Below are positions 9,152 to 49,763 of a stretch of DNA of 64,000 nt, piece by piece. The position numbers were made by a program, and so were the translations under genes. Under the pieces are notes generated by a model, which did not search any database, was not told the origin of the DNA, and saw only the letters and a list, made by a program, of their open reading frames with translations. The stretch lies in assembly GCA_000002435.2 (NCBI GenBank), contig CM018789.1, one strand, 5' to 3'. Position 1 is the stretch's first letter. Each line of letters begins with the position of its first letter. The DNA is from Giardia intestinalis. Its lineage: Eukaryota.

Positions 9152-9171
9152 AAACTTTATTTTGAGATGTA

Positions 9172-9178
9172 AGTGAAT
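9172..9178 (+). promoter_or_regulatory. putative Giardia-type polyadenylation signal (AGTRAAY) 21 nt after the stop of the Cys-rich gene
   Basis: AGTGAAT matches the AGTPuAAPy consensus and lies immediately 3' of the stop at 9149-9151. Confidence 0.4.
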
Positions 9179-9224
9179 ACCTTGAGGTTTTTCACCTAGT
9201 CCTTTTTCTCCAAAAAAAAAGTCC

Positions 9225-9629
9225 ATGCCTATAACACGAGAGCAGCGATCGGCCCTGATAAAAGCAGCCATAGAGGGGAGTGAGCATGCGTATATACCGT
9301 ACTCTAAGTACAAGGTCGGCGCCGCCATCTTGACTGAGAGCGGGGAGATTTTTAAGGGCTGCAACGTCGAGAACGCGGCGTATCCTATCGGTGTATGTGC
9401 TGAGCGCACTGCTGTTGTCAAAGCTATCAGCGAGGGCAAGAAGGACATGGTCGCGTGCGCCGTGGTTACTCGTGATGGGGGCTCGCCGTGCGGTATGTGC
9501 CGACAGACCTTGAACGAATTCAACCCCAAGATGCACATGATATTGGCCAAGTTAGACGGGGAGGTCATAACTGAAATGCCGTTGGACGAGCTCCTCCCCC
9601 TGGGCTTCGGGCCTGCAAACCTGCTCTGA
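9225..9629 (+). CDS. cdd: cytidine deaminase (homotetrameric zinc-dependent CDA family)
   Basis: CAERTA (the HxE/CAE zinc and catalytic-Glu motif) and PCGMCRQ (the PCGxCRQ zinc motif) are both present. Length of 134 aa is typical for tetrameric CDA. Confidence 0.85.
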   Translation: MPITREQRSALIKAAIEGSEHAYIPYSKYKVGAAILTESGEIFKGCNVENAAYPIGVCAERTAVVKAISEGKKDMVACAVVTRDGGSPCGMCRQTLNEFNPKMHMILAKLDGEVITEMPLDELLPLGFGPANLL

Positions 9630-9703
9630 TTAGTCGGGCATTTGCACTGGGCGCCTAACACGGATAACCCGCGGAATAAATCTTAGTTAACGTTAGTGGA
9701 GAC

Positions 9704-27889: not shown

Positions 27890-28500
27890 GATGATTCACT
27901 CCGCCCACCGGCTGCCCCCGGCGCTAGCTATTGAGCTCCGCGACGGACCCTCCATCCTTGGCCGTGGAGCGGGGCTCCTCAAGGCAGCAGGGGGCCAGCG
28001 CGGTCGCCGCTCCCATCCCCAGCCGCCGGGCTAGCACGCCCACTGAGCCGCGACAGGCCCATCAGAGTCTACTTGTTTGCATGTTCTGCGGAGGGCGGCG
28101 CGTTTCTACCGTGGGTCAGGGGGCGAGGGATCTCGTCGGAAGCCGTGCAGATGCACCGATCGGGCAGCAGCCCCAGAAGATCGCCAGCCTGGCCTGTGCT
28201 GGCAAGTCGGGCAGTGGCGACGAGCGCTCCGGTCCGGGAGAACATGGTCTGCCCGTGTCTTCGCGCTGTCCACCGGCGGCCCCTCGCCTCCCGATCTGCT
28301 GCCCACGGGTGAGGACGGGGGCGACAATCGTTGCGGCCCTTGATGGCCCGCTGGGGGCCGGGCTCCTGCCATGTCAGAGGCAGATGCGCAGCCCGGCCCT
28401 AGAGCCAGCCCTGGATGAGTCCCTGCACCGCGCCCCGGGCGGCCTCGCTGGCGGCGGCGGCGGCCCTGACCCCGTGTGCCTTCGCCTCGTAGGGGGCCAG
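27890..28500. other. GC-rich island (about 68% GC versus 48% background), mostly non-coding, 3' of the ANK pseudokinase gene and 235 bp from the tRNA
   Basis: Abrupt composition shift is visible directly (ccgcccaccggctgcccccggcgc...). Only Arg/Pro/Gly-rich artefactual ORFs occur, in several frames. Confidence 0.5.
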
Positions 28501-31500
28501 GGCTCCGACGCACTCGATACGGCCATGCTTTGCGGCATAGGTGAGTGCAGTATCACCTGCCGGTGTCACTATGTTGGCCTCAAGTTTAGCCAAGATTTGC
28601 ACGCATTCTACATGTCCATACGTAGAAGCAAACATAAGTGCAGTTAGGTCGAAGTTGTCTTGAGATCCAGCTTCATATGGAGCAAGCACTTTACACGCGT
28701 CCGCGTGTCCATAAATAGCTGCTAACATTAATGCAGTCCTTCCCTTAGAATCAGTGAGAGTAGCTTCAGTTGCAACTAGCTCTTTGATGGAGTTACAGTC
28801 GTCTACCATGGCCGCTATCATAAGGGCCGTTGGCTCAACCACTGGGAAAATCCCTCTTGTGTTGAAGCTGCCCTGAAGTCTTGTCCCGCTCTCCACACTC
28901 TTTAAGACGCTAACACACTCATGATGACGGTTAAGCACAGATAAGTGTAGCGCGTTATACCCCCTCTTGTTATAGTTGCCGTGCATATACAAAAACGCTT
29001 TTACATATCCTACCTCTCCAGAGATAGCCTTCTGCATGAGCTGCGTATTTCCATCATCATCTAGCAAAACATCTACCCTTAATGAGTTGACTAATTCATT
29101 AGTAAAGCAGTCCTTGCGTGCGAAAGAAGTAGCAATAGCGTATGCGGTAACACCGTTTGTCATGCAAAGATCGCGCTCTTCTAGGAGCAGTGGGATAAGT
29201 GTAAGTCTAGCGAGCAACACAGCTATCATAAGAGCTGTTTGACCTGCTGTAGTTTGTTGACGCAGTAAGCCTTCCTTAATATACCTTTTTACGGCATGAA
29301 TATCATCTGCTAGAACCGCAAACATAAGCTGCGTATATCCTGCGCTCATCAAGAGAGCCCTTTCGACAGACGCTAAAATTGCTATGGAAGTTAAGTCTCC
29401 TGAGATCATAGCTAACTCTGCAGCAAAGTGACCATCTGCATCGACCATGTTTGCTTCGTAATGCACGAGAACTTCAACAATTGCTGAGTGTCCCTGAGAT
29501 GCTGCAAACATAAGCGCCGTTTGGTGCATGTTGTTGGTGGTTTTTGCTAAGTATATACTTGCATGCACTCCGGCTAGATCTCCATGTAATGCAGCACGAT
29601 GCAGCGTAGTATTTCCATTACTATCTGCGGACGGAGAAGGACCAATAATCCGTTGTAGAGCTAAATGGTTGTGCCTCATTTGCTTCTCCCAGCGGCTCAG
29701 CATTTCTGGATCAAGATGTAGCGATGAAATCATGCTCGTGACCATGTCACCTTTAGCTAGGTTTGCGCTTGAAGTTTGCAGATCATCAGTTATAGTCTCT
29801 GTTGTACTAGCCTCAGAGCCGTGTTCAGACGTGTTAGAATATATGGACACTGGTGGGACAAAACCCAGTTCGAGAGGAACGATAAGATTACAAAGCTCCT
29901 TGTTACCGGATTGAATGGCAAGTTGGGACGCTTTTATTCCCTGCTTAGTTTGAAGTCCCACTTCGCTTCCTAGTAATATCCTCGCTACATCAACATGCCC
30001 AGCTGCACATGCCAGCATCAACGCTGTTGTTCCATCGTTTGCCTGAAGACCATAGAGTGTTGTCTTGGAAGTGACCTGGTCCATACGACCATAGAAGGCA
30101 TCGATCATGAGATCTGTGTAGCCATCTTCAACTAAAAAATCTCGCTCTACTGGCAATAATACATCAACCATATCTTTGTTACCGGCCAAGAGCGCGCACT
30201 TTAGAGCATAGGATTGCCCATCTGTTGACCGCATTCCTGATTCTGCCTCTAAAAGTGACTGATCGACGCACCTGCATCCACGCGTACCTGCTCTCAACAT
30301 CAGTGCAGTTAATCCGGCGCCATTGTATAATTTATACTGATAGGAATATTGCTTAGTAATTATAGGACCTTTCGTAATGGCTATTCGATGCAGATCATAG
30401 TTTCCTTGCTCATCAACTATGCTGTCAGGCTCGAGCATGGACAATAAGTGCTTGTGACTATTACGTTGCGCAATTTGCCAAGCTGTCTCCCCATCTGCAG
30501 AGACGATACTCTTTGTATCAAGTAGAAGCTCACAACAATCTGCATGACCTTTGGCTGCTGCATACATTAGTGCTGTCCATCCCTTGCTATCAACAAGGTT
30601 TTTCTGAGACTGAAGACACCATGTGTAATTAAAATTGCCTGCATCTGCTGCCTTCATGAGAGGTGTCATCACATGCTCAGAGCCTTGCTCGCAGAATGTG
30701 ACATCGGTAGCAGGTGGCCCTTCATAGTCCTTCAAGATAGCGCACGCCTCTTGATAGCCCATGCGAATAGCTATAGTAAGTGCGGTAGCATCTGTAAAAC
30801 TTCGTATATTATTCTCTAGTGGCGCCAAAAGATCGATGATATCCGTATGATTCATTATGGTGGCTTTCATGAGAGCCGTTTCACCGGCCTTATCTACCAG
30901 CCCTGCCTCTACACTTGCTAGTCTTGCAACAGCAGAAAGAGATCCTGCTTCTGCCGCAAACATAAGTGCGGTCTTTCCAATAAGACTGGTCGAATCTGGA
31001 TCAGCTATCCAATCTTGCTGATCAACCTGCATGCCACCTTCGACATCAATTAAGTATTCGATAGCCTGCTGATTTCCGTACTTGGCCGCCAACATCAATG
31101 CAGTCATGCCAAAGACATTCCTTAATCGTGCCTGTCGTAAGTAACAAAATGTGCTAAAGGGATCCTTATTAACTACGGCTAGCATTAGGTCAGTGTTGAA
31201 ATCACTTTCTGCCGTGGGGACGGTGTCGCTGGGACCTTCATACTGAACGAGCTCCCGTGCCAACTCCAAGAATCCGTTGGTATATGCTATTTGAAGTGCT
31301 GTAAGGCCATCAGGAGTGCGGCTACCTTGCTCATATGGAGCTAATATCCGCGCTGCATCAATATAATTCTTCTCTGCACAATAGTGAAGTGCAACCCTTC
31401 CGTCCCTGTCTGCAATGCCATGTCCATGTTGTGCAAGAATCCGAATCGCAGGGAGATAGTCTTTCTGCGTTGCTTTGTGTAGTGCAGTAAATCCGTCTTC

Positions 31501-32796
31501 GTCTGGTATGGCTGATTGTTTCTCACGCCAATACCATACTGAATCAATGTCTTCTGCCTCAACGGCAAACAAAAGGTTCGTCATGTTGTGGTTTGAAACC
31601 ACCAATGAATGATCTTGTCTTTCTAAATCGTGCAGAGCCAGTGCTATGTCAAGATGTCCGCTTTTTAGTGCATAGTGGAGTGCTGTGTGTCCCTCAGATG
31701 ATATGCGCATTGCTTCTGTGTTTAGTAACACTTGGACAATTTCATAATATCCCAAGCTCGCAGCCTCCATGAGAGCTGTCTTTGGACACAATGGAGGCGA
31801 AGTCAGACCGCGTCCAAGAAGTGCTGTAACACGGTCGAGATTCTTCTGCCTAACAGCATCTACTAAGGCGTCATACGGTGGCATAGTAAAGGCCAATCCA
31901 GTGCGTGATAGATCCTGCACGGATATGCGAGGATCAAACGTTCGTGCGGTTGAAGTTACCTTCGTCGCGCTCAGCTCAACTTGCGGGGCATTTGTGCTCC
32001 CAGGGGACATAGCGACTTGATGGTGTTGTGACAGCGTAGATAATAGTAGCTGGTTTTGAGTAGTAGCTCCATATTCTTCAAGATCAAAAACACCTACCCC
32101 TGCTGATCCCTTAGCACAGCTTATTGTAGATGGAAAGTCATCACCCATCTCTAGTGCTTGAATTAATAAGTCCAATTCCTTAGTGTATGCCTTTGATTCT
32201 TGAGTTGGAAGATTGATCCCTACAATCTTGGTCAAGAGTCTTGCAACGCTCCTAATATCGGTAACTAGGTTAGCACTCGCATCCAGACCATATCCTAATA
32301 AGGCAATGCGTGATGTGTCTGTAAGAATAACAGTCTCAGCTGAGATGGCCCCATGAGATGAAAAGAGACCATTGTATCCCGGGGTATTAGAAAGAAATGT
32401 AACTGCATCACGCAGCTGACTATAGATATCATAAATTTCTGCCTCTGTGAATGGTTCATTCCCCGTGCTCTTCACATTAATAACTTCCGCGAGAGAGGGC
32501 TTATCGGAAAACAAAGAGACAAGGTATCCTCTGTGTGCGGAGTCGCTTATATAATCGATATATGGAACCAGGGTCCGCGGTGCACGACTAATAAGCCCCA
32601 CAGCGTACTGAAAAACACCTTCTATTGTATCAGCGCAAATACCGGGTACTTGGAAGAGTAAGCACTGTTTCCCATCAGATTCTCGCTGGGCATGTTGCAC
32701 ACGCGCATTGTTTAACGGCTCCAGTAAAATGTAGCTGTCAAACTTCCCTCTCAGCATCTCCTTTCTTTGCCAAAATTGAAGCTCAGTTAAAAACAA
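28399..32796 (-). CDS. NEK-like pseudokinase fused to a long ankyrin-repeat array (Protein 21.1 / NEK family of diplomonads)
   Basis: The N-terminal 270 aa have a kinase-fold pattern with degenerate catalytic motifs: no VAIK Lys, HGAISAETVIL in place of HRDxKxxN, and LLGYGL in place of DFG. More than 25 ANK repeats follow (GxTALMxAAxxGH...). Length 1465 aa. Confidence 0.8.
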   Translation of the reverse strand: MFLTELQFWQRKEMLRGKFDSYILLEPLNNARVQHAQRESDGKQCLLFQVPGICADTIEGVFQYAVGLISRAPRTLVPYIDYISDSAHRGYLVSLFSDKPSLAEVINVKSTGNEPFTEAEIYDIYSQLRDAVTFLSNTPGYNGLFSSHGAISAETVILTDTSRIALLGYGLDASANLVTDIRSVARLLTKIVGINLPTQESKAYTKELDLLIQALEMGDDFPSTISCAKGSAGVGVFDLEEYGATTQNQLLLSTLSQHHQVAMSPGSTNAPQVELSATKVTSTARTFDPRISVQDLSRTGLAFTMPPYDALVDAVRQKNLDRVTALLGRGLTSPPLCPKTALMEAASLGYYEIVQVLLNTEAMRISSEGHTALHYALKSGHLDIALALHDLERQDHSLVVSNHNMTNLLFAVEAEDIDSVWYWREKQSAIPDEDGFTALHKATQKDYLPAIRILAQHGHGIADRDGRVALHYCAEKNYIDAARILAPYEQGSRTPDGLTALQIAYTNGFLELARELVQYEGPSDTVPTAESDFNTDLMLAVVNKDPFSTFCYLRQARLRNVFGMTALMLAAKYGNQQAIEYLIDVEGGMQVDQQDWIADPDSTSLIGKTALMFAAEAGSLSAVARLASVEAGLVDKAGETALMKATIMNHTDIIDLLAPLENNIRSFTDATALTIAIRMGYQEACAILKDYEGPPATDVTFCEQGSEHVMTPLMKAADAGNFNYTWCLQSQKNLVDSKGWTALMYAAAKGHADCCELLLDTKSIVSADGETAWQIAQRNSHKHLLSMLEPDSIVDEQGNYDLHRIAITKGPIITKQYSYQYKLYNGAGLTALMLRAGTRGCRCVDQSLLEAESGMRSTDGQSYALKCALLAGNKDMVDVLLPVERDFLVEDGYTDLMIDAFYGRMDQVTSKTTLYGLQANDGTTALMLACAAGHVDVARILLGSEVGLQTKQGIKASQLAIQSGNKELCNLIVPLELGFVPPVSIYSNTSEHGSEASTTETITDDLQTSSANLAKGDMVTSMISSLHLDPEMLSRWEKQMRHNHLALQRIIGPSPSADSNGNTTLHRAALHGDLAGVHASIYLAKTTNNMHQTALMFAASQGHSAIVEVLVHYEANMVDADGHFAAELAMISGDLTSIAILASVERALLMSAGYTQLMFAVLADDIHAVKRYIKEGLLRQQTTAGQTALMIAVLLARLTLIPLLLEERDLCMTNGVTAYAIATSFARKDCFTNELVNSLRVDVLLDDDGNTQLMQKAISGEVGYVKAFLYMHGNYNKRGYNALHLSVLNRHHECVSVLKSVESGTRLQGSFNTRGIFPVVEPTALMIAAMVDDCNSIKELVATEATLTDSKGRTALMLAAIYGHADACKVLAPYEAGSQDNFDLTALMFASTYGHVECVQILAKLEANIVTPAGDTALTYAAKHGRIECVGALAPYEAKAHGVRAAAAASEAARGAVQGLIQGWL

Positions 32797-35908: not shown

Positions 35909-37264
35909 TTAGCTCCTCTCTTCATATTTATCTAAGCACAGAAGACAATCTGTGGCCTGAAACTCTTCACACCACTGTCTCACGGTTTTCCCATGGGGGA
36001 ATTGTGAAGATGGAGGTTGCGATAGGTGGTATTCTTTAGGAAGAAGCAGCTCAAATGCTGCCTTTGCATTTGCCTGGCCGGCAGCCATCAGGGCGGTGAA
36101 TCCTGATCCGCACCTATGATGTCCACGTGTTATCAGTGAGCACTCCTTGGCCATCAGGAGTTGCACAGCAAAGACCCAATTATTTGCTGCTGCGATCATC
36201 AGCGCTGTCTCGCCAAAGTAATCGGATTGACCTGCCTCAGCCGGTGCCAGGATTGGAATTGCTTCCATAAAGCCTTCTTTGCATGCAATGATAAGTGCCG
36301 TTTCCCCACAAGCCATTTGCTCACCACCCTCAGCGGAGGCAAGAATATGTAGGGGTTCGATGTGATGATGAATTACAGCTGTTGCTAGGGCGGTATACCC
36401 AAGAAAATTCTTCTGTTTGCGCTGCGCTAAGTTTCTTTGAATCATGGGCAAGTCATTGACGGCGGCGGCTACAATGAGCGGAGTCGAGCCTACTGCGTCA
36501 AGAATACGATACTCTCCGTGAAGCACCTCAAAGGCCTGGAGAATATATGGAGAAGTGTTAAACTCGTGAGAGGTAATTCTATTCGATGGAGACGGGGCAA
36601 CAAAGCGGGTTAAAAGAGCTACCAACGACGAAGATGCCAGACTATAGGCTTCAGTACAGTGTCTGCGGTGTATTTGCGTATTGATGGCATATAGCTCCAA
36701 CATCAGAATACCAATACTATAAAGTGCAGAGCTAAAACTGGTTCTAGTAGGCTTGTGGTCTTTTTGGAGCAAAAGTGGATCAGCTGCTGGAAGTTTTGTA
36801 AAGAGAGACGGGTTTAGTGAAAAATAAATAGAGTCACAAAGAGAAAAGGCCAAAGAGCCGTTGTTTTCAAAGTACAAGGATGTTGGGAGAAAAGTAATGG
36901 TAAGAGGATAGCGTTGAAGCCAACCACCAAGCTTATAGTGCTCTAAGAAGAGCATCACTTGAAGGAGTATTTTGTAGAGATAGCTAACGTCTATGGTGTC
37001 TTCATGAAACAGACACGCAGCAGCAAAAGATTCTAGATTAATACCACTAGTACTAGGCTCTATGATGGCTGTAATCTGATTATCAGTACTTTCCACCTCC
37101 AAGATGCGACCTCTTGGCAAGGCCCCGGGTCTAATTTCTCCAGCGGACGTCACAATCATCCTCTGAAGGGCTCTAGCGTTGATACCTGTTACTGGAGGAA
37201 TGGTCGTGCAAACTCCCAAGCGCCCGCACTTCATCCGTGTCAGATGCCTTTCAAATGTACACAT
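35909..37264 (-). CDS. short Protein 21.1-type protein, with a degenerate kinase-like N-terminal region plus C-terminal ankyrin repeats
   Basis: C-terminal repeats (GYTALATAVIHHH, GETALIIACKEGF, GETALMIAAANNW, GFTALMAAGQANA) follow the ANK consensus. The N-terminus is not catalytically competent. Length 451 aa. Confidence 0.7.
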   Translation of the reverse strand: MCTFERHLTRMKCGRLGVCTTIPPVTGINARALQRMIVTSAGEIRPGALPRGRILEVESTDNQITAIIEPSTSGINLESFAAACLFHEDTIDVSYLYKILLQVMLFLEHYKLGGWLQRYPLTITFLPTSLYFENNGSLAFSLCDSIYFSLNPSLFTKLPAADPLLLQKDHKPTRTSFSSALYSIGILMLELYAINTQIHRRHCTEAYSLASSSLVALLTRFVAPSPSNRITSHEFNTSPYILQAFEVLHGEYRILDAVGSTPLIVAAAVNDLPMIQRNLAQRKQKNFLGYTALATAVIHHHIEPLHILASAEGGEQMACGETALIIACKEGFMEAIPILAPAEAGQSDYFGETALMIAAANNWVFAVQLLMAKECSLITRGHHRCGSGFTALMAAGQANAKAAFELLLPKEYHLSQPPSSQFPHGKTVRQWCEEFQATDCLLCLDKYEERS

Positions 37265-39649: not shown

Positions 39650-40204
39650 TTACTCTATCATATAAATTCGTCCGTTCTCATGCATGTCTGCCGGTGGCAT
39701 TTGCACAGCCGGATACCCTATGGCTAAAGCACAGAGTACTCTTCTGTTTGGCGAGTTGAGTAACCGTAAAACATCCAGGACAATCCTTTCCGAATCTTCT
39801 CCGTAAACGTTCTTGCGGCCATAGAATTGCTCCCAGGAACAGGCGAGGCCAAAGTCTGAGCATGCTAGCTGGATCATGGCGGCGGCTATCGACATGTCCG
39901 TCGCGATGCTTGTTACCCCGTCATTTTGTATTCCCATAACGACAATCAGCAGCTTTGCATGCTGCATATATTCTGCTTTTTCGCCCTTGGCCTGCGAAAT
40001 CGTCTTTATTATGCGCGGATTAGTCACAAACGCGAACTCCGTGTGTCGCGTGTTATGCCCCGTGGGGATAGCGACGGCAACTTTGCGTAAATATTCGATG
40101 GCCTCTATTGAAACGGATTCCTTCGTGTACTGCTTGATTGCGCGCCTCCGTAAGATAGCGTCACAAATGGGAGGCATAGACCTTTGAAATTTCCAGTTTT
40201 TCAC
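39650..40204 (-). CDS. bacterial-type nitroreductase (NADH/FMN-dependent nitroreductase fold) lacking a ferredoxin domain
   Basis: Length 184 aa. AILRRRAIKQY matches the nitroreductase N-terminal RRS.R motif. The overall size and pattern fit the family, and there is no N-terminal 2x[4Fe-4S] domain. Confidence 0.65.
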   Translation of the reverse strand: MKNWKFQRSMPPICDAILRRRAIKQYTKESVSIEAIEYLRKVAVAIPTGHNTRHTEFAFVTNPRIIKTISQAKGEKAEYMQHAKLLIVVMGIQNDGVTSIATDMSIAAAMIQLACSDFGLACSWEQFYGRKNVYGEDSERIVLDVLRLLNSPNRRVLCALAIGYPAVQMPPADMHENGRIYMIE

Positions 40205-40240
40205 GTCTTTTTACATTTCTCACAAGGACTGAGGATTTGC

Positions 40241-40274
40241 ATCTATATCTATATCTGTATCTGCATCTGCATCC
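40241..40274. repeat. imperfect hexanucleotide microsatellite, (ATATCT)n then (GCATCT)n
   Basis: The sequence atctatatctatatctgtatctgcatctgcatcc is visible directly. When translated it yields ICIYIYICICICI inside the over-extended 40184 ORF. Confidence 0.7.
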
Positions 40275-40291
40275 ATAACTTCACCCTTGCC

Positions 40292-43200
40292 TTTATGGCT
40301 TCCAACATAGATCTGGTACAGGTCGTCTTCCCCACTGCAGTAGTTCATAACGTCTGGAACTGGATAGATACTACCGAGCAGAGGTCAAAGGTCGCTGTCT
40401 TCCTTGTTGACTTCTTGGATCTGCACGACTCCGTCATCTCTGAGCGATGTGACCATCTATTTACCTGTTCGTTCAATAATAAGCGCCCCCAAAAGCTCGG
40501 CCACAGAGCCGCATACGCCGGTGCAGGTGTCTGCGAAGTATCTTCTCTTTTGCCCAGCACGTGGACCAGCAAAAGTCTATTGATAGGCGTGCTTTGGTCG
40601 GCAGGCGAGTTGGCTGACACAACCAAGATCTGCACTGAGATGGCAGAGGTAGTGTTTGCCAAAGGATCTGAGAGGCGCAAATTTCTTATCCAGATACCTG
40701 TATATAGCGAACCACTATCCTTTCTTACGATGTTTACCATAGTCATTGTTCTCTTTCTTTTCTGTATTGCATTAGGGTTTACAATCTTGGCCTGTTTCCT
40801 CATCCAAAGAAGTTACACACAGAAATTTATCGTTCTCACATCACTGAATCGCGCTGCAACCAATTATGCTTACTTTGATTACATTACCAAGCAGATAATC
40901 GCTAAGTGTAAAGACATGCATTCAGTAACCGAGCAGCTTAGGCCATTGGGCCCAAAGCACAAGGAGTTACCGGATTATGCATCCACTAAGGAACCGAAAA
41001 GATCAGCATCCAGGAAGATTGGTATACTTGAGGCTGACCCATACGCTGGAAAGGGCAAAGAACGCAAGCAGGACAACGCTGGCACAGCTCTTACATTGTT
41101 GTCTTCACTTCCTCATATGCCCAACGACGCAGCCGATAACTCAGCGCAACACAGAAGAAAGACACGTCAGCTACGGCATCGGCACAACTTAGGTCCACGA
41201 TTGGCCCCTACTAGACAACTCAGTAGTTTATCCCTTGAAAAGCTGAGAGAACGAGCACTTCCACATTCTAACAATTACGCCGTTGATAACATGACTTCCG
41301 AAGACCAACGTAAGGTCTGCTCATTCCTTCCGAAGCAACCTAATATCATCCAAACTCTTGACGACAATCTTCGCTACTTATCAAGCTATCCCATTGAGCA
41401 CATCTCCAATCTTGACACGAATTATTCATATGAAGTTCATAAATATAACAATGCAAATGTGCTTTTTTCACAAATCGTTATGCCAATCTGGGCCAGCGCC
41501 CTAATATTTTCCAAAACAATGAAGCTACAGGCCATGTCGGACAATAGAAAGGCCGATGTTGCAGCTATCAAAGGGGTCTTCATTTTAGTCGTAGATAAAA
41601 TCTACGATAATAGGTACGTGCTTCCTAGAGAGCTTGTGGGCATCTGTGCCTTCAATAAAAATAGTAAGTTTCACTTCTGCATGATCACTGATTTGAATAA
41701 TTATATGCCTTTGCCGGACTTCCTCCAAGGTGTAAGAGCTAGCGTCAGCAGGCATGGACTTACCTCTGAAAGCTTCTGTTACAATATTAATCTAATCCAC
41801 GAGCTCCTTAGGCTATGCAGACAACGAATGCGAGACAGGAAAGAACCAACTAACATATCGAAAGACGATCAGGCCCACCAAGATTCAAGCACCGACTTGG
41901 AGCCGGACTTGTTGAACACATCTGGCACTAAGCACTTTGTATCACCGGCTTCATCTTTTGTTACGGCACATCCGTCTAAGAGTCCATCCACTGTCTCTAC
42001 TAAAGAATCATCTATTTCTGTCCCTTCCCTCAAAGAACTTAAGAGGATGAACTCTCAAGAGCTGATAGATCTCCTCAGACCAGATGTTTTTACCATCTTG
42101 AATAGGCCTGCCACGAGATTCATTACGATAATCCATGCACTGAATGCTCAGCATATTCGTCGGTCATCGGGTGCAGCCTTTCTGCAGCTAAGGTCTGGCC
42201 AATCCCTGGAAGCCGCGGGAAAGTGTCAGCAACGGCAGACGGATAGCGCTGTAGACGATAAACCTGATAGAACTAGCTCTTTTTCGGGCTCCCGACGAAA
42301 CAAGACTCTACTTTATAAACTTCCGCCTTCCCATCTTCAGAGCAAGCTGCGAAACTCTAAAAACATATCAGAGACATCTGAAGTAACAGAGTCGTCAAAT
42401 GATGATAGATACAGTGACAACTTACCGTTAACTCCTTTGTTTGACGGGTTGCAAGGCACAAGAGACAGCACTGACAGTTCAGACCCTGATAATTGTGACA
42501 TAGTTGCGTGCTTGTGCCACAAGCTAGAGCAAACAGCAGACGTCAAATCTGGCGACACTCAGCTTCGGGCAGTGCCGTTGGACACTGTAGCGACGCAGAG
42601 CGTTTCGCAATGTATTTCACAGAGCATTTCGCGGTCATCCTATACTATGCTCCCACCACTTCCATTGAAGTATAGCACTAGCCCTACACCTAGCTCTACA
42701 TTCACGCCATGCACAGATACCCAAGTCTATATGGAAGCCCACAGCAGCTTTATGTTCGGTAGCTGCTTAGTTGAGGACTGTGCTCTGCAAGAAATTTATG
42801 ACGCTTTGGCATACTTGGGATCATCTGCCAGGGAGCGTATGGCTCGACTTTTAATAAAAGAGATTGCTACACGCAGGCACAGCCTTAAGGACATACAATA
42901 TTTTGACAAGGATTGCATACTAATTAGCATGGATCGTGTATTAACTGATTCTGAGATGGAAGTCGAGATTGACATTAAGCTGGAGCCATTCTCTATGTTG
43001 CTGCGAAACATCAATATGATACCCCGACCAGTTACCGCGAAGACAGACTGTGGGAATACGTCAAGTGTCGACATGTATGTGCGGATTCTGCTTATCTATT
43101 TAGAGCTTATCACTCTCCTGGATTGTACGCAGAGCGATTTGGAGGAACTTTCTATCTTCTTACCTGAGCTCAGAGGCGACGCAGACTACGGGACTGCAAT

Positions 43201-43586: not shown

Positions 43587-44579
43587 TTAACGTTTCGAGC
43601 GCATGATCTGCTGTATCTTTACCCCTATTGTCATTAAGATCTTGGCCTGAACTGACAAGTGCTCACCAATTTGCTTTACTATGGACGGATCTTTAAGAGC
43701 AGGGTATCTGGCCATAAAGTCCTTTTCCACTTTGTCCTTATCCCCGTCTAGAACCTCCTTCAGTAACAGAAAGCGGCTACGCAGTGTATCTCCGTATTGT
43801 GATTCTAGGGATTGGTTAATTTTCTTACATGCAAGCTCGTGCGTTATTGGTATCCCCGTTTGCTCCTCTAATCTGGACCCTATGGAGAAAATTAACAGCG
43901 TTGACTTCTTAGACAGCTCTTTGAGCTTCTTACTATTATCTAGCACTTTATCTGTTTCTTGGTAAATAGATTCCATATCTTTCTTTATCTCTTGTAGCGT
44001 CGTGGTGTGTGCAGCTGCCCGTGCAGCCAGCTGTTCAAACCCGTACACGAGGACGGGGGAGTATCGCGTGCAGTCAGGGCAGCACCGCCTTGCCTCCAGC
44101 CAGAGCTTTTCATCGTTATACGGTGGAACGTTGGGGTCGGCAGAGGGAGGTTGCGGGGCCGGTGGAGCCCCAAAACCGGGTTTGGAGAAGCTTCCGAAGC
44201 CAGAACCAAACCCGCTAAGGCCTGTCGTGAGAGGCGCAGGTGGAGGATCCTTTTTAGAGGCAAGCTCATCGTAAAAGAAGCCGGAGAGAGGGGTCTGGTA
44301 AGATGAGGCGTAGATATTAAGAAGAGAGCTGAAAACGTCGACAAGCCTGCCCTTCTGTGCCATAAGATGAAGAGATTGAGGAATGTCTATCTGCTGTTGA
44401 TGGCTGCACGGCCCCTGCACCTCCCGTTTTGCATTGTCGTTTGTAGGAGCATTAAGGCCAAAAATACCCTTATCTGCAGACAAAGAAACACCGATGGATG
44501 AAGACGTTAGCGGGGCAGACGGTTTTGATACTCCAGAGAAGGCTGCAATAGACATGGGCTGAGCGTTGAAGGACCGCAT
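43587..44579 (-). CDS. FG-repeat protein with C-terminal coiled coil, candidate central-channel nucleoporin (Nup54/Nup58-like)
   Basis: The middle region GLSGFGSGFGSFSKPGFGAPPAPQPP carries FG repeats. The N-terminus is Ser/Thr-rich. The C-terminal 150 aa are predicted alpha-helical/coiled coil (LEEQTGIPITHELACKKINQSLESQYGDTLRSRFLLLKEVL...). Confidence 0.5.
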   Translation of the reverse strand: MRSFNAQPMSIAAFSGVSKPSAPLTSSSIGVSLSADKGIFGLNAPTNDNAKREVQGPCSHQQQIDIPQSLHLMAQKGRLVDVFSSLLNIYASSYQTPLSGFFYDELASKKDPPPAPLTTGLSGFGSGFGSFSKPGFGAPPAPQPPSADPNVPPYNDEKLWLEARRCCPDCTRYSPVLVYGFEQLAARAAAHTTTLQEIKKDMESIYQETDKVLDNSKKLKELSKKSTLLIFSIGSRLEEQTGIPITHELACKKINQSLESQYGDTLRSRFLLLKEVLDGDKDKVEKDFMARYPALKDPSIVKQIGEHLSVQAKILMTIGVKIQQIMRSKR

Positions 44580-44607
44580 GACTCAATGAAATTTATTCTT
44601 AGAAACA

Positions 44608-45654
44608 TCAGGTTAAATGGCTAATGCTCAGGTTATCCGATGGCGCTGCGTCCGATTCTGCCCGTTTGTGGACAAGCTTGACACGCAGCTGCTCCAAAAA
44701 CTCCAGCTCTTGGGCAATGAAAGCTCTTAAATCTGCAGTGGTCCGGGAGTCAAGGGTCATCCAAAGAGTGTTGAAATCTCCAAACCCGCTACGCATCGAT
44801 GAGAGGGTTACAAGCTCTCTTGTCGTCCCTTCAACCATATCACCTAGCTGAGTCGCTGCACTGAGTATTGCTTTCCGCTGAGCCGGATTGGAACACCCAT
44901 ACTCCCGCTCTTCAATAATCTTCATGAGTTTAAAAGAAATAGCTCCGTAAAGGGAGGTGCATTGAGATAAAAGAGATGAAATGACATTCGAGTGATTGAC
45001 CAAGTCGTTTAGACGCTCGTCAAAGTTATAAGCAGACGGCGAAGACAATCCATCCTTGAGCTCGCTAAGTTTAGCAGTGTGGGTATTTGCGCGTGTAACC
45101 AGCCCCTCTATCCCGACAACTTCATTTGCATCTGACTTACCTTGAGCAGGCTTTTGTTGGAAGCCAAGGCCGAAACCAAAACCAGATCCTCCACTTTGCC
45201 CCAAAACGCCTCCTCCTCCGAAGCCGCCAAACCCTCCTGGCTTTGTCCCAAACCCTAAAGTGCCCGAGGACCCTAGCGTACCAGATGTGGCTGTGGTAGT
45301 TGGTAACGGCTTGTCTAACTTTAGTCCTGCTGATTTAAAGTTCGCCTTGAAGAGGCAAGTATCTGATTCGGTTGGCAGATAGGCCTTTTCCAGTACTGTG
45401 GCAAACACTCCAGCTCCTATTGTGTTGATAACCCGTGCCATCTCACTTTGCTGAGTCGTGTTTTGGGCTTGCCCGGCTAGGCTTCCAAACTCCATGCTGG
45501 GCTTGGCCCCAAAGCCCCCGCCAAACGTCGTGCCTCCTGCTGAAGTAGACCCAGAACCGAAGGTACCGAAGGTACCAAAGCCCGTGGGCTTGGCCCCAAA
45601 GCTGAAGCCCGACGTGGGAGCGCCTGCAGAAAATGCACCGGCCTGCATTTCCAA
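44608..45654 (-). CDS. FG/GFG-repeat protein with C-terminal coiled coil, candidate Nup62/Nsp1-like nucleoporin
   Basis: The N-terminal half is SGFSFGAKPTGFGTFGTFGSG...GFGGFGGGG...GFGFGLGF, which are FG, GFG and FGxxP repeats. The C-terminal 130 aa are heptad-like (ELVTLSSMRSGFGDF...LEFLEQLRVKLVHKRAE). This architecture is the Nup62 family's. Confidence 0.55.
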   Translation of the reverse strand: MEMQAGAFSAGAPTSGFSFGAKPTGFGTFGTFGSGSTSAGGTTFGGGFGAKPSMEFGSLAGQAQNTTQQSEMARVINTIGAGVFATVLEKAYLPTESDTCLFKANFKSAGLKLDKPLPTTTATSGTLGSSGTLGFGTKPGGFGGFGGGGVLGQSGGSGFGFGLGFQQKPAQGKSDANEVVGIEGLVTRANTHTAKLSELKDGLSSPSAYNFDERLNDLVNHSNVISSLLSQCTSLYGAISFKLMKIIEEREYGCSNPAQRKAILSAATQLGDMVEGTTRELVTLSSMRSGFGDFNTLWMTLDSRTTADLRAFIAQELEFLEQLRVKLVHKRAESDAAPSDNLSISHLT

Positions 45655-45704
45655 CTTGATTTTTCCACTTTACCAAAATTTAAAACAAAAACTAAAATTG
45701 CAGG

Positions 45705-46448
45705 ATGAGCAGGAACACCTTCATGAAGAAATTGGCCGACAAGATAAACTACAAGGCCGACGACAATGAGATTTATGAGAAACGATTGGCCTTGGCACAG
45801 TTGCTGGAGGAGTTTGGTTCGCTGCCAATGCTTGTTGTAAGTGGATTTTTGCAAAAGAGTATCGGTGGGATGTTTTTCAATGGAACGGTCGCCTTTGTCG
45901 GCATCGTTATGGCGTGGATCTTGCCGGCCAACGCCTTGTTTGATGCTTTTCTTTTTCTTTCAATATTCACGCTTTTGAAGATCGTGTTTTCGGCGGCTGC
46001 AGTTGATAAAGCGATCGATGACATGCTAAAGAATGTCAAGAATAGAGAGATTATTTACGAAAAACTCCTGAAGAGTATGGCCAAGCACGCAGTCTGTACC
46101 CGTACCGCCTTCGAGACCCTCGGAGCTCAGAACCAACTTATGCTTATGATAGTACTAACCTTTTTCGCCTTCTTTATCCCCCTGCCCGTCTTCGCCACCA
46201 TCGGCCTTCTGCTCGTCGCATTATTCCCCGTTTATAACATAATCTCGAAACAGGAGGCAGAACGATTCCTGGCCTCACCACCGGTCTCTCCACGTGTGCG
46301 AACAAACCACCCTATTCGCGGTGGGGTTCCCGACTCTCTTGTCAATTCCCTGCGTAATGATCAAGCAGCTAATGATGCAGGGTCTCAACTGGTCACATCT
46401 CTCATCCCGCCGCCACCACCACCACCGCCAGCTAAGCTTGGTGAATAA
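45705..46448 (+). CDS. double-hairpin membrane protein (reticulon / Yop1-DP1 / PRA1-like topology) with a poly-Pro C-terminus
   Basis: Two hydrophobic hairpins of about 40 aa each (FNGTVAFVGIVMAWILPANALFDAFLFLSIFTLLKIVF and LMLMIVLTFFAFFIPLPVFATIGLLLVALFPVY) are separated by a hydrophilic loop of about 50 aa. It is a paralogue of 49185..49763. Confidence 0.55.
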   Translation: MSRNTFMKKLADKINYKADDNEIYEKRLALAQLLEEFGSLPMLVVSGFLQKSIGGMFFNGTVAFVGIVMAWILPANALFDAFLFLSIFTLLKIVFSAAAVDKAIDDMLKNVKNREIIYEKLLKSMAKHAVCTRTAFETLGAQNQLMLMIVLTFFAFFIPLPVFATIGLLLVALFPVYNIISKQEAERFLASPPVSPRVRTNHPIRGGVPDSLVNSLRNDQAANDAGSQLVTSLIPPPPPPPPAKLGE

Positions 46449-46465
46449 GAAGCGTCGACACTTTC

Positions 46466-46472
46466 AGTAAAC
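46466..46472 (+). promoter_or_regulatory. putative polyadenylation signal AGTAAAC 18 nt after the stop
   Basis: Matches AGTPuAAPy. Confidence 0.4.
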
Positions 46473-46524
46473 ATCATTCCCTGCGCGATCGACTTTTCTG
46501 TAATTTAAAACTAAAGATTGCGGC

Positions 46525-49143
46525 ATGGACAGCCGCCCAGAAGAACCTGCAGACCCGACGGAGGTTGTGGATAATCCGTTGCCGCCCAGTGTCCCATATG
46601 CCTCTGTGCCTCTTCTTGTCGGGGAGGAGTATGCTGCTCCTCTTAGCTGTGCAATAAACCCAGCAAAAGATCTTATCGCATGCGGAACGGAGACAGGAGT
46701 GCTTCTCATTTATCACTCCTTTTCGATGCAGCTTGTCCGTTCACTGAAAGTGGATGAAAATGCCATCTATAAACTTATTTGGGCCCCAGATAGCCAATCT
46801 ATATTGGCCATCACTATGGGCTCAATCCTATGGGTCTCCCTTGCCAGAGATACTAGCATAACTAGGATGGTGAGCGGAGACTCGATCTACGTTCCCGGGC
46901 AGGCAGCCAAGGGAGGTTCGAACGAATACTTAACTACGCAGGGAACTGGCAGGGAAGATCCACTCAGGGAACCCCAGGGAGACATTATAGAGGCGTGGAG
47001 TCTAGAGGATCAAGAGCTCTCCCTATTGTCATATTCTATTTCAGCATGGTTAATAGAAGTCGATCCTTCTGCTCTCCATTATACAAAGTTCGGTGCTGAA
47101 AATTTCCGCTATAGATCTTGCTTCCGGGTCATAGGAGTAGAGCTACTCATTACCGTAGCACTAAACTACTATGAAGCCACTGGGCTGAAGTCTATAATCT
47201 TTCTTGCAAATAAGTGCAACGATCCATCGTCAGACATGCACTCCTGGGCAGCTATCAACGAAGTCGACTACACAGCTGCCCTTGCCGATGCCTTTGGTGT
47301 GACCAGCATTCCGGCCACATCTGATGTCCTGGCGATCACGGGGCACGTCTTTGTAGTCTCAACTGGTCTTAAGTATGTCATTTTTCGTCGCAATACACTA
47401 TTTACGCCTTACAATCTCGCTGGAAAGGTGGATTATGCATCTCAGTTGCTAATCCAGGGTATAGGGTACACAGGGTCTGTTAATGAGCGGCGATTTGAAG
47501 CCCATAAGCAAACCCTTCATACCAATGAAGAGCCAACAATTGCCGTCACGTTTGTAACAACTAAGCAAACGATGGCGGTTACCAATTTCAGCACTGGTAT
47601 CGATACTAAGAACACAGGTGTCAGTAGAGGGACAAGTGCAGATGCATACGAAGTTCTGAGGGCTTTGATGTCTATTCCTCGGCAAGGAGAGGGCAATCAA
47701 TCTTATGTTGCGGAGTTTCGGTCATTCCACCATTTTTTTCTGTTCATTTATGCATATCACGCGTCTCTTTGTAGAGCAAGCATTACTTATGGACGCTCTC
47801 GCTTCTATCAAGCGCTAACAGACCTCACCTTTCAATCCCTATTCACTTCGGCAGCCAACGCAGCACGGGAAGGAGATGCCTTTACAAAACTAATGACAAT
47901 CCTATCATTTACCTTTTCTGCTGACATATGTGACTTCAGTTCGGTAATATACGATGAGCTAATAGCATCTTTCACTCTTGTAGAGGTCAGCGACGGTTGT
48001 AAGAGTACAGAGAAAACGGCAACAATAGATATGTACATGACAGGTGTGTTCAACTTGGCAGACATATTTAAAGCACTCGGAGATGATGTTCTGAAGCAGG
48101 CACCGGACCTATGTCTTCTTTATCCCAATCCCAGCCTTGCAGAGCTGCTCCTCAACTATCGCATCATCTCCTTCAAAACGAGTATTGACAAGCAGTGGTT
48201 GTATGTGGCCAATCCTCGATTCATACTGACTCTTTCTACCAAGCATAATGTGTGTGAGATATATGAATATGGGGAGAACTTCCTCATCAGCGACCTAGTT
48301 TTTGATATGAGGCCCTTCCCGGCCATTCACGTTGAATTTGGCTATGCTCCCTACGAGCTAGTGATGGCATCAGTAGGGTATTCTCCCCCATACACTCCAG
48401 AGAACATACGGTTACTGTCTGCCAATTGTAGCAAAACTACTATAAAGCAGACAAACGTGCTGTACGCAAATCTGGCCTCGCTGTCACAAGCAAGCAGGGT
48501 CACCAGTAGAAACGCAAGTCGGAGGCTAAGGCTAGTTCCACAGAGGAAGTCAAGGAGAAGGATAGACAAACGGAAACGAGATGCCCCTAGCCCAATCAGC
48601 ACCCTGTCAGAAAACAGGGGTTTCAGAGGAAAGAAGGTGAATCAGCAGAGAACACAGGCTAACCCAGAATCTAGTGCAACAGGTCCATTAACCAGTGATG
48701 ACCTTTCAAGCATAACAACCAGCTCTATGGTCAATCCAAATGAAGCAGGAGCCCAGGAGGAGAACCTAGCTATTACTACTTCAGACATAGACTCACTGCA
48801 GCGCCTCCTTCTGCAAGTAGAGCCACAGCTGGTGTTTTGGGCGTGCAGAGAAGTGCAGGACTTCAACAGCTGTTTCCCAGGCTTTGAAACTGTTAGCACC
48901 AATGTACTATATATAGAACGCGAGGACGAACTAGACATAGATCAGTCAGATCTATATCCCCCGACTGCGCTACCCCGGGCTGTTGACGTGGATTACAGAG
49001 AACTCCAATATCCGACGAAGACCGTGCAGGATGACGAGTTAGATATATTATCACTGGAAGACAGCATCCCAGCATACCATTACTTGCGATCTTATGCAGA
49101 GGTTCATGAGCTTCCCATAAAACTGACCATAGAAATAATATAA
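46525..49143 (+). CDS. hypothetical 872-aa protein. The N-terminus has WD/beta-propeller-like character, and the C-terminus is acidic
   Basis: Long ORF. N-terminal blocks such as LIACGTETGVLLIYH and IYKLIWAPDSQSILAIT resemble propeller blades. No confident family. Confidence 0.55.
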   Translation: MDSRPEEPADPTEVVDNPLPPSVPYASVPLLVGEEYAAPLSCAINPAKDLIACGTETGVLLIYHSFSMQLVRSLKVDENAIYKLIWAPDSQSILAITMGSILWVSLARDTSITRMVSGDSIYVPGQAAKGGSNEYLTTQGTGREDPLREPQGDIIEAWSLEDQELSLLSYSISAWLIEVDPSALHYTKFGAENFRYRSCFRVIGVELLITVALNYYEATGLKSIIFLANKCNDPSSDMHSWAAINEVDYTAALADAFGVTSIPATSDVLAITGHVFVVSTGLKYVIFRRNTLFTPYNLAGKVDYASQLLIQGIGYTGSVNERRFEAHKQTLHTNEEPTIAVTFVTTKQTMAVTNFSTGIDTKNTGVSRGTSADAYEVLRALMSIPRQGEGNQSYVAEFRSFHHFFLFIYAYHASLCRASITYGRSRFYQALTDLTFQSLFTSAANAAREGDAFTKLMTILSFTFSADICDFSSVIYDELIASFTLVEVSDGCKSTEKTATIDMYMTGVFNLADIFKALGDDVLKQAPDLCLLYPNPSLAELLLNYRIISFKTSIDKQWLYVANPRFILTLSTKHNVCEIYEYGENFLISDLVFDMRPFPAIHVEFGYAPYELVMASVGYSPPYTPENIRLLSANCSKTTIKQTNVLYANLASLSQASRVTSRNASRRLRLVPQRKSRRRIDKRKRDAPSPISTLSENRGFRGKKVNQQRTQANPESSATGPLTSDDLSSITTSSMVNPNEAGAQEENLAITTSDIDSLQRLLLQVEPQLVFWACREVQDFNSCFPGFETVSTNVLYIEREDELDIDQSDLYPPTALPRAVDVDYRELQYPTKTVQDDELDILSLEDSIPAYHYLRSYAEVHELPIKLTIEII

Positions 49144-49184
49144 TGATTAAAAAATTAATTTAAGGTTTCGGTAGTTAAAAAAGG

Positions 49185-49763
49185 ATGCCGAGCAAGTGCC
49201 CCCTCCGTGATCACATTGAGAAGCTCAAGACTGGAATCGCGCCAGACGACCTTGCTAGATGCAAGACAGAAGTCGCCGAGTGCGTGTCAAAGTTCAAGAC
49301 ACCAGTCAAGATCTTCCTGGGTGGTGTGACCTATGAGCACCTCTACGCAGTCGTGTTCAACGCCGTCATTTCTGTCATCATCCTGGTTATCGCATGGAGC
49401 CTTCCGCAGAATGCTCTCTTCAACGTTTGTTTGATCATTACCTTGCTCATGGGGGCGAAATTTGTATTCCAGCATCCGATCGTCGAGAGCAAGCTCGGGC
49501 TCATTTCTGGGAAGCTCGGTCCAGGGGACGCCAAGCTCGACATGCTAGTCGACACCCTCGCTGCCCTTCGTGCCCGACGCATTCAGCTCAAGGACACATT
49601 CTTCAACGACAATAAGAAAGTGCTCGCCCTCCTTGCCGGCCTCGCCTTTCTCTCCTTCTTCATCTCGACCCCTGTCATCGTCACAGTCGTTCTTGTTGTC
49701 CTTAATCTAGTGCCTTTCTATGTCAGATACGTTGTGGCGTCTCACAAGCAACCGGAGAACTGA
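49185..49763 (+). CDS. double-hairpin membrane protein, paralogue of 45705..46448 (reticulon/PRA1-like)
   Basis: Shares the motif VIAWSLPQNALFNVCLIITLL with AWILPANALFDAFLFLSIF in the paralogue, and has the same two-hairpin architecture. Length 192 aa. Confidence 0.55.
   Translation: MPSKCPLRDHIEKLKTGIAPDDLARCKTEVAECVSKFKTPVKIFLGGVTYEHLYAVVFNAVISVIILVIAWSLPQNALFNVCLIITLLMGAKFVFQHPIVESKLGLISGKLGPGDAKLDMLVDTLAALRARRIQLKDTFFNDNKKVLALLAGLAFLSFFISTPVIVTVVLVVLNLVPFYVRYVVASHKQPEN

Follow-up and report, generated by a model that had tools for sequence, protein, structure and literature searches.

Nup62, Nup58, and Nup54 belong to the coiled-coil complex of the nuclear pore's central channel and join patches of phenylalanine-glycine (FG) dipeptides to a C-terminal helical domain. 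A hidden Markov model survey of Giardia detected Nup54 but neither Nup62 nor Nup58 (PMC2951903 Table 2). Reticulons and ARL6IP1, which carry a reticulon homology domain (RHD), insert paired short helices from the cytosol and stabilize or mark curved membranes of the endoplasmic reticulum (ER). In a survey of Giardia for such proteins (PMC9804665 Tables S2 and S6), reticulon, ARL6IP1, PRA1/Yip3, TMEM33, and lunapark went undetected; two REEP homologs, GL50803_12160 and 31339, and an atlastin/Sey1 homolog were recovered. Here we describe a run of genes at positions 43587 to 49763 of a 64-kb window of Giardia intestinalis WB (assemblage A; contig CM018789.1), where "the window" means the whole 64-kb stretch. 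Two genes for FG proteins, a Nup54 homolog and a protein here called FG2, adjoin two genes for paralogous membrane proteins, here called hairpin proteins A and B, which flank a gene for a protein of 872 amino acids (aa).

The initial annotation took these genes for a nuclear-envelope or membrane-shaping neighborhood. That reading did not hold up, because the adjacency of the nucleoporin and hairpin genes is lost in G. muris and gene density explains their closeness. We instead favor, with a probability of about 0.7, an ordinary gene-dense Giardia stretch in which two unrelated gene groups abut without a functional tie. The first group would be the tandem, same-strand pair formed by the Nup54 homolog and FG2, and the second would be the start of an older synteny block, common with G. 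muris, that runs from hairpin protein A onward. The cluster itself would then be a coincidence of dense packing, with the hairpin family, FG2, and a motif in the 872-aa protein as its useful by-products.

All five open reading frames (ORFs) named in the initial annotation are real and, together with the adjoining FKBP gene, match annotated G. intestinalis WB proteins exactly. The features of the region are as follows.

43587..44579, minus strand: Nup54 homolog, 330 aa, XP_001709163, annotated as "Nucleoporin complex subunit 54"
44608..45648, minus strand: FG2 (GL50803_14400), 346 aa, FG-repeat protein annotated as hypothetical
45649..45704, no strand: AT-rich divergent intergenic region of 56 bp between FG2 and hairpin protein A, where synteny with G. 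muris stops
45705..46448, plus strand: hairpin protein A (GL50803_7242), 247 aa, annotated as hypothetical
46525..49143, plus strand: 872-aa protein, annotated as encystation-specific secretory granule protein-1 (gGSP)
48832..48996, plus strand: RbBP5/Swd1-like "WD40-repeat-proximal" motif in the 872-aa protein, residues 770-824
49185..49763, plus strand: hairpin protein B (GL50803_7244), 192 aa, annotated as hypothetical

Coding sequence makes up 95% of the window, which holds 37 genes in 64 kb (about one per 1.7 kb), and the gaps between genes are typically 20 to 110 bp. At this density, five genes in 6.2 kb are the norm, so their location "within 6 kb," which had been offered as a sign of clustering, carries no weight.

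Gene order in G. muris separates the two groups. In G. intestinalis, hairpin protein A is followed by the 872-aa WD gene, hairpin protein B, FKBP, a coiled-coil gene, a PC-repeat protein, PRPP synthetase, and further genes. In G. muris, the order is hairpin protein A, a PQ-loop gene, the WD gene, and hairpin protein B, followed later by the PC-repeat, coiled-coil, FKBP, and PRPP synthetase genes and the next large gene. The shared block thus comprises at least eight genes with a local inversion and extends from hairpin protein A through the remaining downstream part of the window. Synteny stops exactly between FG2 and hairpin protein A; ankyrin and coiled-coil genes lie upstream in G. muris, and no homolog of Nup54 or FG2 was found in the 22-kb G. 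muris locus (10 kb on either side of the WD gene). In a diverged Giardia lineage (locus L002; 68 to 91% protein identity), the complete order is kept, including FKBP, and consecutive locus tags (GLP15_414 to 418) suggest that it is kept in assemblage E as well. These lineages are too close for conservation of order to be informative. The comparison across Giardia that the initial annotation had proposed therefore came out as an order kept in close lineages and broken between FG2 and hairpin protein A in G. muris.

A functional nuclear-envelope or pore-assembly neighborhood, in which FG nucleoporins, curvature proteins, and a scaffold-type beta-propeller are kept together for co-expression, could draw on the homology of one gene product to Nup54 and the FG richness of its neighbor, on the double-hairpin architecture of 7242 and 7244, on the 56-bp divergent spacing of FG2 and hairpin protein A, on the order kept within the G. 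intestinalis complex, and on the lack of a recognizable reticulon in Giardia. We nevertheless regard it as very improbable. The adjacency breaks in G. muris exactly where this explanation would need it to persist, between FG2 and hairpin protein A; conservation in the close assemblages is expected from their short divergence; and such adjacencies are common at this gene density. Two of the supposed components also differ from what the explanation calls for: the 872-aa protein has no nucleoporin affinity and matches gGSP and RbBP5, and no homology of the hairpin family to reticulons or REEPs is detectable.

Some observations weigh against our reading of the two groups as unrelated. The divergent intergenic region between FG2 and hairpin protein A is only 56 bp and has the same length in L002, so co-regulation of the two genes is possible. 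Nup54 and FG2 were not found in G. muris, where one 22-kb locus was covered, and the pair may still lie together elsewhere in that genome. Finally, since reticulon, ARL6IP1, PRA1, TMEM33, and lunapark are undetected in Giardia, some other protein must shape the ER and nuclear envelope, and the hairpin family is a reasonable candidate.

The genes for hairpin protein A, the WD protein, and hairpin protein B could alternatively form a genus-wide module, in which the hairpin proteins recruit the soluble 872-aa protein to ER-derived membranes, for example, those of encystation-specific vesicles. The three genes have the same strand and order in G. intestinalis, the diverged Giardia lineage, and G. 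muris, and the duplication that placed paralogs on both sides of the WD gene is older than the split between G. muris and G. intestinalis. Recruitment would explain how an anchorless protein is reported on secretory granules, given that the full-length 872-aa protein lacks an N-terminal hydrophobic signal and is yet named a granule protein, and both hairpin proteins are present in an organelle fraction (PMC3044749). Three findings make such a module unlikely. The triad is the first part of the block of at least eight genes shared with G. muris, which includes PRPP synthetase and the PC-repeat protein, and its conservation is not special because it is part of this longer conserved block. In G. 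muris, the PQ-loop gene stands between hairpin protein A and the WD gene, and outside Giardia no WD homolog lies beside the hairpin genes. The G. muris PQ-loop gene, which encodes a transporter (8927-9853 of locus L001), is absent from that position in G. intestinalis.

Three loci from outside Giardia carry a hairpin homolog with no homolog of the WD protein, Nup54, or FG2 nearby. A conserved functional neighborhood is thus seen at neither level, as the nucleoporin-hairpin adjacency is lost in G. muris and the triad is not kept outside Giardia. In two of these loci, the hairpin homolog is tail-to-tail with a Got1/Sft2-family gene (L006 10001-11497 and L008 3801-5102). A relative of the 959-aa coiled-coil neighbor in Giardia lies nearby in both L006 and L008, and an FKBP gene lies nearby in L006; this is residual microsynteny, not functional linkage. 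An 851-aa gene product encoded beside the hairpin homolog in L006 was considered as a relative of the WD protein and gave no match.

The 872-aa protein had been described as having a propeller-like N terminus and had been put forward for comparison with scaffold nucleoporins. It has another identity. Published gGSP (AAK97081, 480 aa) is identical at 474 of 477 residues (99%) to residues 397-872, which identifies the 872-aa protein as gGSP; because the match covers only these residues, the published clone represents just 55% of the ORF, at its C-terminal end. Many positions of the N-terminal half are invariant between G. intestinalis and G. muris, and this conservation leads us to infer that the longer ORF is the real product. 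A signal-like hydrophobic stretch is missing from its N terminus, and a basic disordered region extends over residues ~650-760.

No nucleoporin family in Pfam at an E value of ≤1 was matched by any of five orthologs of the 872-aa protein, and no nucleoporin chain in the PDB was matched at that threshold, with Nup133, Nup155, Nup160, Sec13/Seh1, Nup37, and Nup43 as the families at issue. Support for the propeller-like N terminus is weak. One WD-type blade is recognizable at residues ~36-106 (nucleotides 46630-46842) by Pfam matches (E of about 1e−3) that score far below the cutoffs, and a propeller was not demonstrated: the AlphaFold2 model from five orthologs had a predicted local distance difference test (pLDDT) score of 28, and a single blade is recognizable by sequence, compared to the seven of a WD40 propeller.

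The best PDB matches of the 872-aa protein are human RbBP5 and yeast Swd1, which belong to the Set1/MLL COMPASS complexes. Residues 770-814 align to RbBP5 residues 320-364 (phmmer against the PDB, E = 0.005), the profile of the 872-aa family matches RbBP5 residues 319-359 at an E value of 7e−4 and also matches yeast Swd1, and hhalign to RbBP5 gives 41 columns with 37% identity (E = 2.8e−4, probability of 41%). The RbBP5 reference sequence was validated by its score of 1,238 bits to 6kiu_N. The matched stretch is among the most invariant, in fact nearly invariant, between G. intestinalis and G. muris. In RbBP5, residues 330-360 hold the activation segment and the ASH2L-binding motif (PMC6821195), which follow the last propeller strand; residues 770-814 of the 872-aa protein align with this part of RbBP5.

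Further similarities to RbBP5 concern the order of elements. The N-terminal WD blade aligns collinearly with RbBP5 residues 26-90, the C-terminal segment aligns with RbBP5 residues 318-364, and an acidic run is followed by VDV, as in the WDR5-binding motif. The sole VDV of the 872-aa protein is at residues 820-822, 18 residues past the acidic run, and that of human RbBP5 is at residues 375-377, 24 residues past. The human VDV is located in the WDR5-binding motif. The differences are considerable: human RbBP5 has 538 aa versus 872 here, where ~650 residues separate the first blade from the motif; the seven-bladed propeller of RbBP5/Swd1 was not demonstrated; and statistical support is moderate, with E values from 3e−4 to 5e−3. 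We lean toward the view that the 872-aa protein is an RbBP5/Swd1-type WD protein, which by sequence would be a much-expanded member of that type and not a nucleoporin.

This assignment conflicts with the reported role of gGSP, since a granule calcium-binding protein, as PMC13315228 summarizes the published function, is entirely different from RbBP5. H3K4 methyl marks have been probed by immunoblotting in Giardia (PMC7743719). For two decades, gGSP has been known as a calcium-binding protein of secretory granules. Its best-conserved stretch resembles the motif activating Set1/MLL histone methyltransferases, and the gGSP annotation may need reexamination.

The two membrane proteins are indeed paralogous double-hairpin proteins, as the initial annotation had proposed. 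They match each other by BLASTP (E = 5e−9) and by tblastn (E = 5.5e−10 over 179 residues). Both contain a pair of uncharged hydrophobic stretches, each 28 to 44 residues in length and interrupted by a Pro-containing turn, at residues 52-91 and 146-180 in 7244 and residues 52-79 and 138-181 in 7242. The AlphaFold2 model of 7244, built from 15 family members, consists of two helical hairpins (mean pLDDT of 72), with helices at residues 53-72 and 77-95 and at residues 143-159 and 162-188; the 47-residue loop between the hairpins itself contains two helices. The hairpins lie as follows.

45858..45989, plus strand: hairpin 1 of hairpin protein A, residues ~52-95
46116..46247, plus strand: hairpin 2 of hairpin protein A, residues ~138-181, followed by a Pro-rich C-terminal tail
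49338..49469, plus strand: hairpin 1 of hairpin protein B, residues 52-95
49611..49730, plus strand: hairpin 2 of hairpin protein B, residues 143-182

The first turn carries the motif AWxLPxNxLF, which is invariant in the Giardia members, and its P, N, and L are invariant family-wide. G. muris has orthologs of both proteins, that of hairpin protein A with 48% identity. Word-indexed searching, whether with 7244 by itself or with a profile of eight sequences, returned Giardia proteins only, and a complete HMMER scan of 1.84 billion representative proteins gave nine matches, namely, Giardia proteins plus six from public read assemblies. One of the six, a third paralog of 217 aa (P0072; L004/L005 373-1026), comes from another locus in the same diverged Giardia sample as L002, where its gene adjoins a kinase gene and Tctex-1 genes. 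By these searches, the hairpin family is small and restricted to Giardia and a few other eukaryotic assemblies, with at least three paralogs in Giardia.

The hairpin turns are uncharged, Lys/Arg and Asp/Glu are abundant in the N terminus and the loop, and several relatives have Cys clusters in both the N terminus and the interhairpin loop. If the clusters are palmitoylated, these features would place the N terminus and loop in the cytosol, and the N terminus, interhairpin loop, and C terminus of the hairpin proteins probably all face that side. The densest clusters (e.g., CPCKCPCCCC) occur in the protein encoded at 12520-13173 of L001 and in relatives P0069, P0073, and P0074 and look like multiple palmitoylation sites. 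The window proteins 7242 and 7244 have few cysteines.

Whether these are reticulon-like proteins, as had been claimed, has a divided answer: the architecture agrees, but no reticulon or REEP homology is detectable by Pfam or hhalign. As in the RHD of reticulon and ARL6IP1, 7242 and 7244 have two long hydrophobic segments, each a hairpin of 35 to 45 residues, joined by a hydrophilic loop of ~47 residues with helices of its own, and their N terminus, loop, and C terminus are probably cytosolic. ARL6IP1 (203 aa) is closest to 7244 (192 aa) in overall size and layout. REEP/Yop1, PRA1/Yip3, Promethin/LDAF1, and Got1/Sft2 are likewise small proteins of early secretory or ER membranes with paired hydrophobic hairpins.

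Unlike the architecture, the sequences of the reticulons show no similarity to the hairpin family, either directly or by profile. When the 15 family members were scanned against Pfam, Reticulon (PF02453) was matched in only one, at an E value of 9.7, and the ARL6IP1/RETREG RHD (PF24456), TB2/DP1/HVA22 (PF03134), and PRA1 (PF03208) were matched in none; two family consensus sequences matched nothing in Pfam. The hhalign probability of the family profile was 0.1% for the RTN4 RHD, 1.1% for ARL6IP1, and ≤1.1% for each of PRA1, REEP5, Promethin, and Got1. The human references for the RTN4 RHD, ARL6IP1, PRA1, REEP5, and Promethin were validated with Pfam (158, 44.5, 140, 112, and 84.5 bits, respectively). 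Fold searches of the PDB with the hairpin model were uninformative. REEP5, PRA1, and Got1 thus received no match from the family, and Giardia has its REEP homologs, GL50803_12160 and 31339, as separate proteins (PMC9804665).

Structural details also differ. Reticulons and REEPs have an amphipathic helix after hairpin 2. This helix is missing from 7244, which ends 10 residues after that hairpin, and from 7242, which has the Pro-rich tail there; a helix of high hydrophobic moment in this position occurs only in some distant members (P0072 and P0074). The helices of the hairpin family measure 17 to 21 residues, a length sufficient to cross a bilayer, so insertion as a wedge is only a possibility. 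We consider the family to resemble reticulons by architecture and not by homology.

Several candidate relationships were rejected. Kinship to Promethin (PF16015) was indicated only by P0074, below threshold (E = 7.8e−5, 22.9 bits versus a cutoff of 27), and consensus scans and hhalign gave nothing. Matches to EI24/CysZ (best E = 2.5e−4) were below the cutoff, covered a short hydrophobic stretch, and were treated as compositional. Descent from a diverged Got1/Sft2 (PF04178) paralog, an idea that arose from the Got1 adjacency in two loci, was ruled out by hhalign.

On topology alone, the hairpin proteins might stabilize curved ER or ER-derived membranes by insertion from the cytosolic face, a suggestion that we make tentatively; their paired short helices would then stabilize or mark these curved membranes in the way that reticulon and ARL6IP1 do, without membership in those families. 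The main alternatives are a role at the mitosomal membrane and a role as a trafficking adaptor. Peptides of 7242 and 7244 (three for 7244) were found in a mitosome-enriched dense gradient fraction with a mitosome-like iTRAQ (isobaric tags for relative and absolute quantitation) ratio (PMC3044749), and detection by mass spectrometry shows that both proteins are expressed.

The same data are the case for regarding the hairpin proteins as mitosome outer-membrane or contact-site proteins instead of shapers of the ER or nuclear envelope, as both fall inside the iTRAQ window of "mitosomal distribution" of Jedelsky et al. 2011 (PMC3044749). BiP, V-ATPase subunits, giardins, tubulin, and cysteine-rich surface proteins shared this distribution, and of 44 candidates tested, 20 were confirmed as mitosomal, with 7242 and 7244 outside the tested set (PMC3044749). 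A mitosomal assignment is accordingly improbable in our view. As a small, lineage-restricted family of reticulon-like topology in an organism where reticulons are unfound, the hairpin family remains a concrete candidate for shaping the Giardia ER and nuclear envelope.

The proposal of two FG nucleoporins was borne out for one gene and is plausible for the other. The 330-aa protein is identified as a Nup54 homolog by its match to the Pfam Nup54 helical domain (PF13874; E = 2.6e−10, 40.9 bits versus a gathering cutoff of 30.5) at residues 152-225 (nucleotides 43905-44126). It contains four FG dipeptides and a heptad-like helix from residue ~176. FG2 has 13 FG dipeptides in two patches, at residues 15-55 (nucleotides 45484-45606) and 131-160 (nucleotides 45169-45258), clustered in low-complexity regions rich in Gly, Ser, and Thr, and has the highest FG density among the 38 window ORFs of ≥150 aa; its C-terminal domain is poor in Pro and Gly. 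FG density thus makes FG2 a plausible nucleoporin, but no Nup family was matched, and we treat it as a candidate channel nucleoporin only. FG2 is annotated to start with the ATG at 45648, two codons downstream of the TTG (45654) that the ORF lister proposes.

Neither the single FG2 sequence nor the profile of its orthologs matched a Pfam family or a PDB entry; the profile search of the PDB yielded nothing beyond coiled-coil noise, for example, spike proteins and Dad2. Against the C-terminal domain of human Nup62 (Nsp1_C), hhalign gave a probability of 0.25%; this reference was validated by its score of 118 bits to Nsp1_C. The Nup54 orthologs gave a local match of 28 columns to FG2 where the helical domain begins (BLASTP E = 8e−4; hhalign E = 1.7e−3, probability of 15%). 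Homology of the structured domain of FG2 to Nsp1_C/Nup62, Nup58, or Nup54 was not significant.

Sequence similarity between the Nup54 homolog and FG2 is barely detectable, yet the two are almost equal in length and their module boundaries coincide, with an ordered segment at residues ~61-110, an FG patch at residues ~121-165, and a helix that begins at residue 176 or 177. FG2 shares the modular plan of the Nup54 homolog, in which an FG patch, an ordered segment of ~50 residues, and a second FG patch precede a helical domain from residue 176 or 177. Such a common plan is compatible with an old tandem duplication, though it is not proof of one. As in the Nup62-Nup58-Nup54 complex, both proteins join FG patches to a C-terminal helical, heptad-like domain. 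They differ from that complex in their low FG content (4 and 13 dipeptides), and FG2 matches neither Nsp1_C (PF05064) nor Nup54 significantly.

Since Nup54 had been detected in Giardia without Nup62 or Nup58, FG2 is a reasonable, unproven candidate for the missing channel partner, and most likely, we infer, represents a strongly diverged member of the coiled-coil complex in the central channel. Given its position beside Nup54 and the common modular plan, FG2 is a candidate that can be tested as one of the Nup62/Nup58 partners missed by comparative surveys.

A more ambitious proposal joins the two groups after all. The hairpin family would replace reticulon, ARL6IP1, and PRA1, the copy divergent from FG2 would stabilize the curved pore membrane of the two nuclei, and FG2 would be the Nup62/Nup58-type partner of Nup54. 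We consider this combination quite unlikely and retain two unrelated, abutting gene groups as the preferred explanation.

As for other features of the window, no Rfam family or tandem repeat was found between 40 and 51 kb, and every short antisense ORF listed overlaps annotated genes and lacks support. The ORF lister extends the gene for a 1,016-aa protein upstream from a TTG, through a stretch (40184-40294) with the translation ICIYIYICICICI. Such a translation indicates a short simple repeat of AT/GT type in noncoding intergenic DNA, and the gene likely starts at the ATG at 40295. The ORFs at 21824-26398 and 28399-32757 (both minus strand; 1,524 and 1,452 aa) and the smaller one at 35909-37264 (minus strand) repeatedly matched the ankyrin-repeat gene at the G. 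muris locus, with many hits, and are probably members of the expanded ankyrin-repeat protein family of Giardia.

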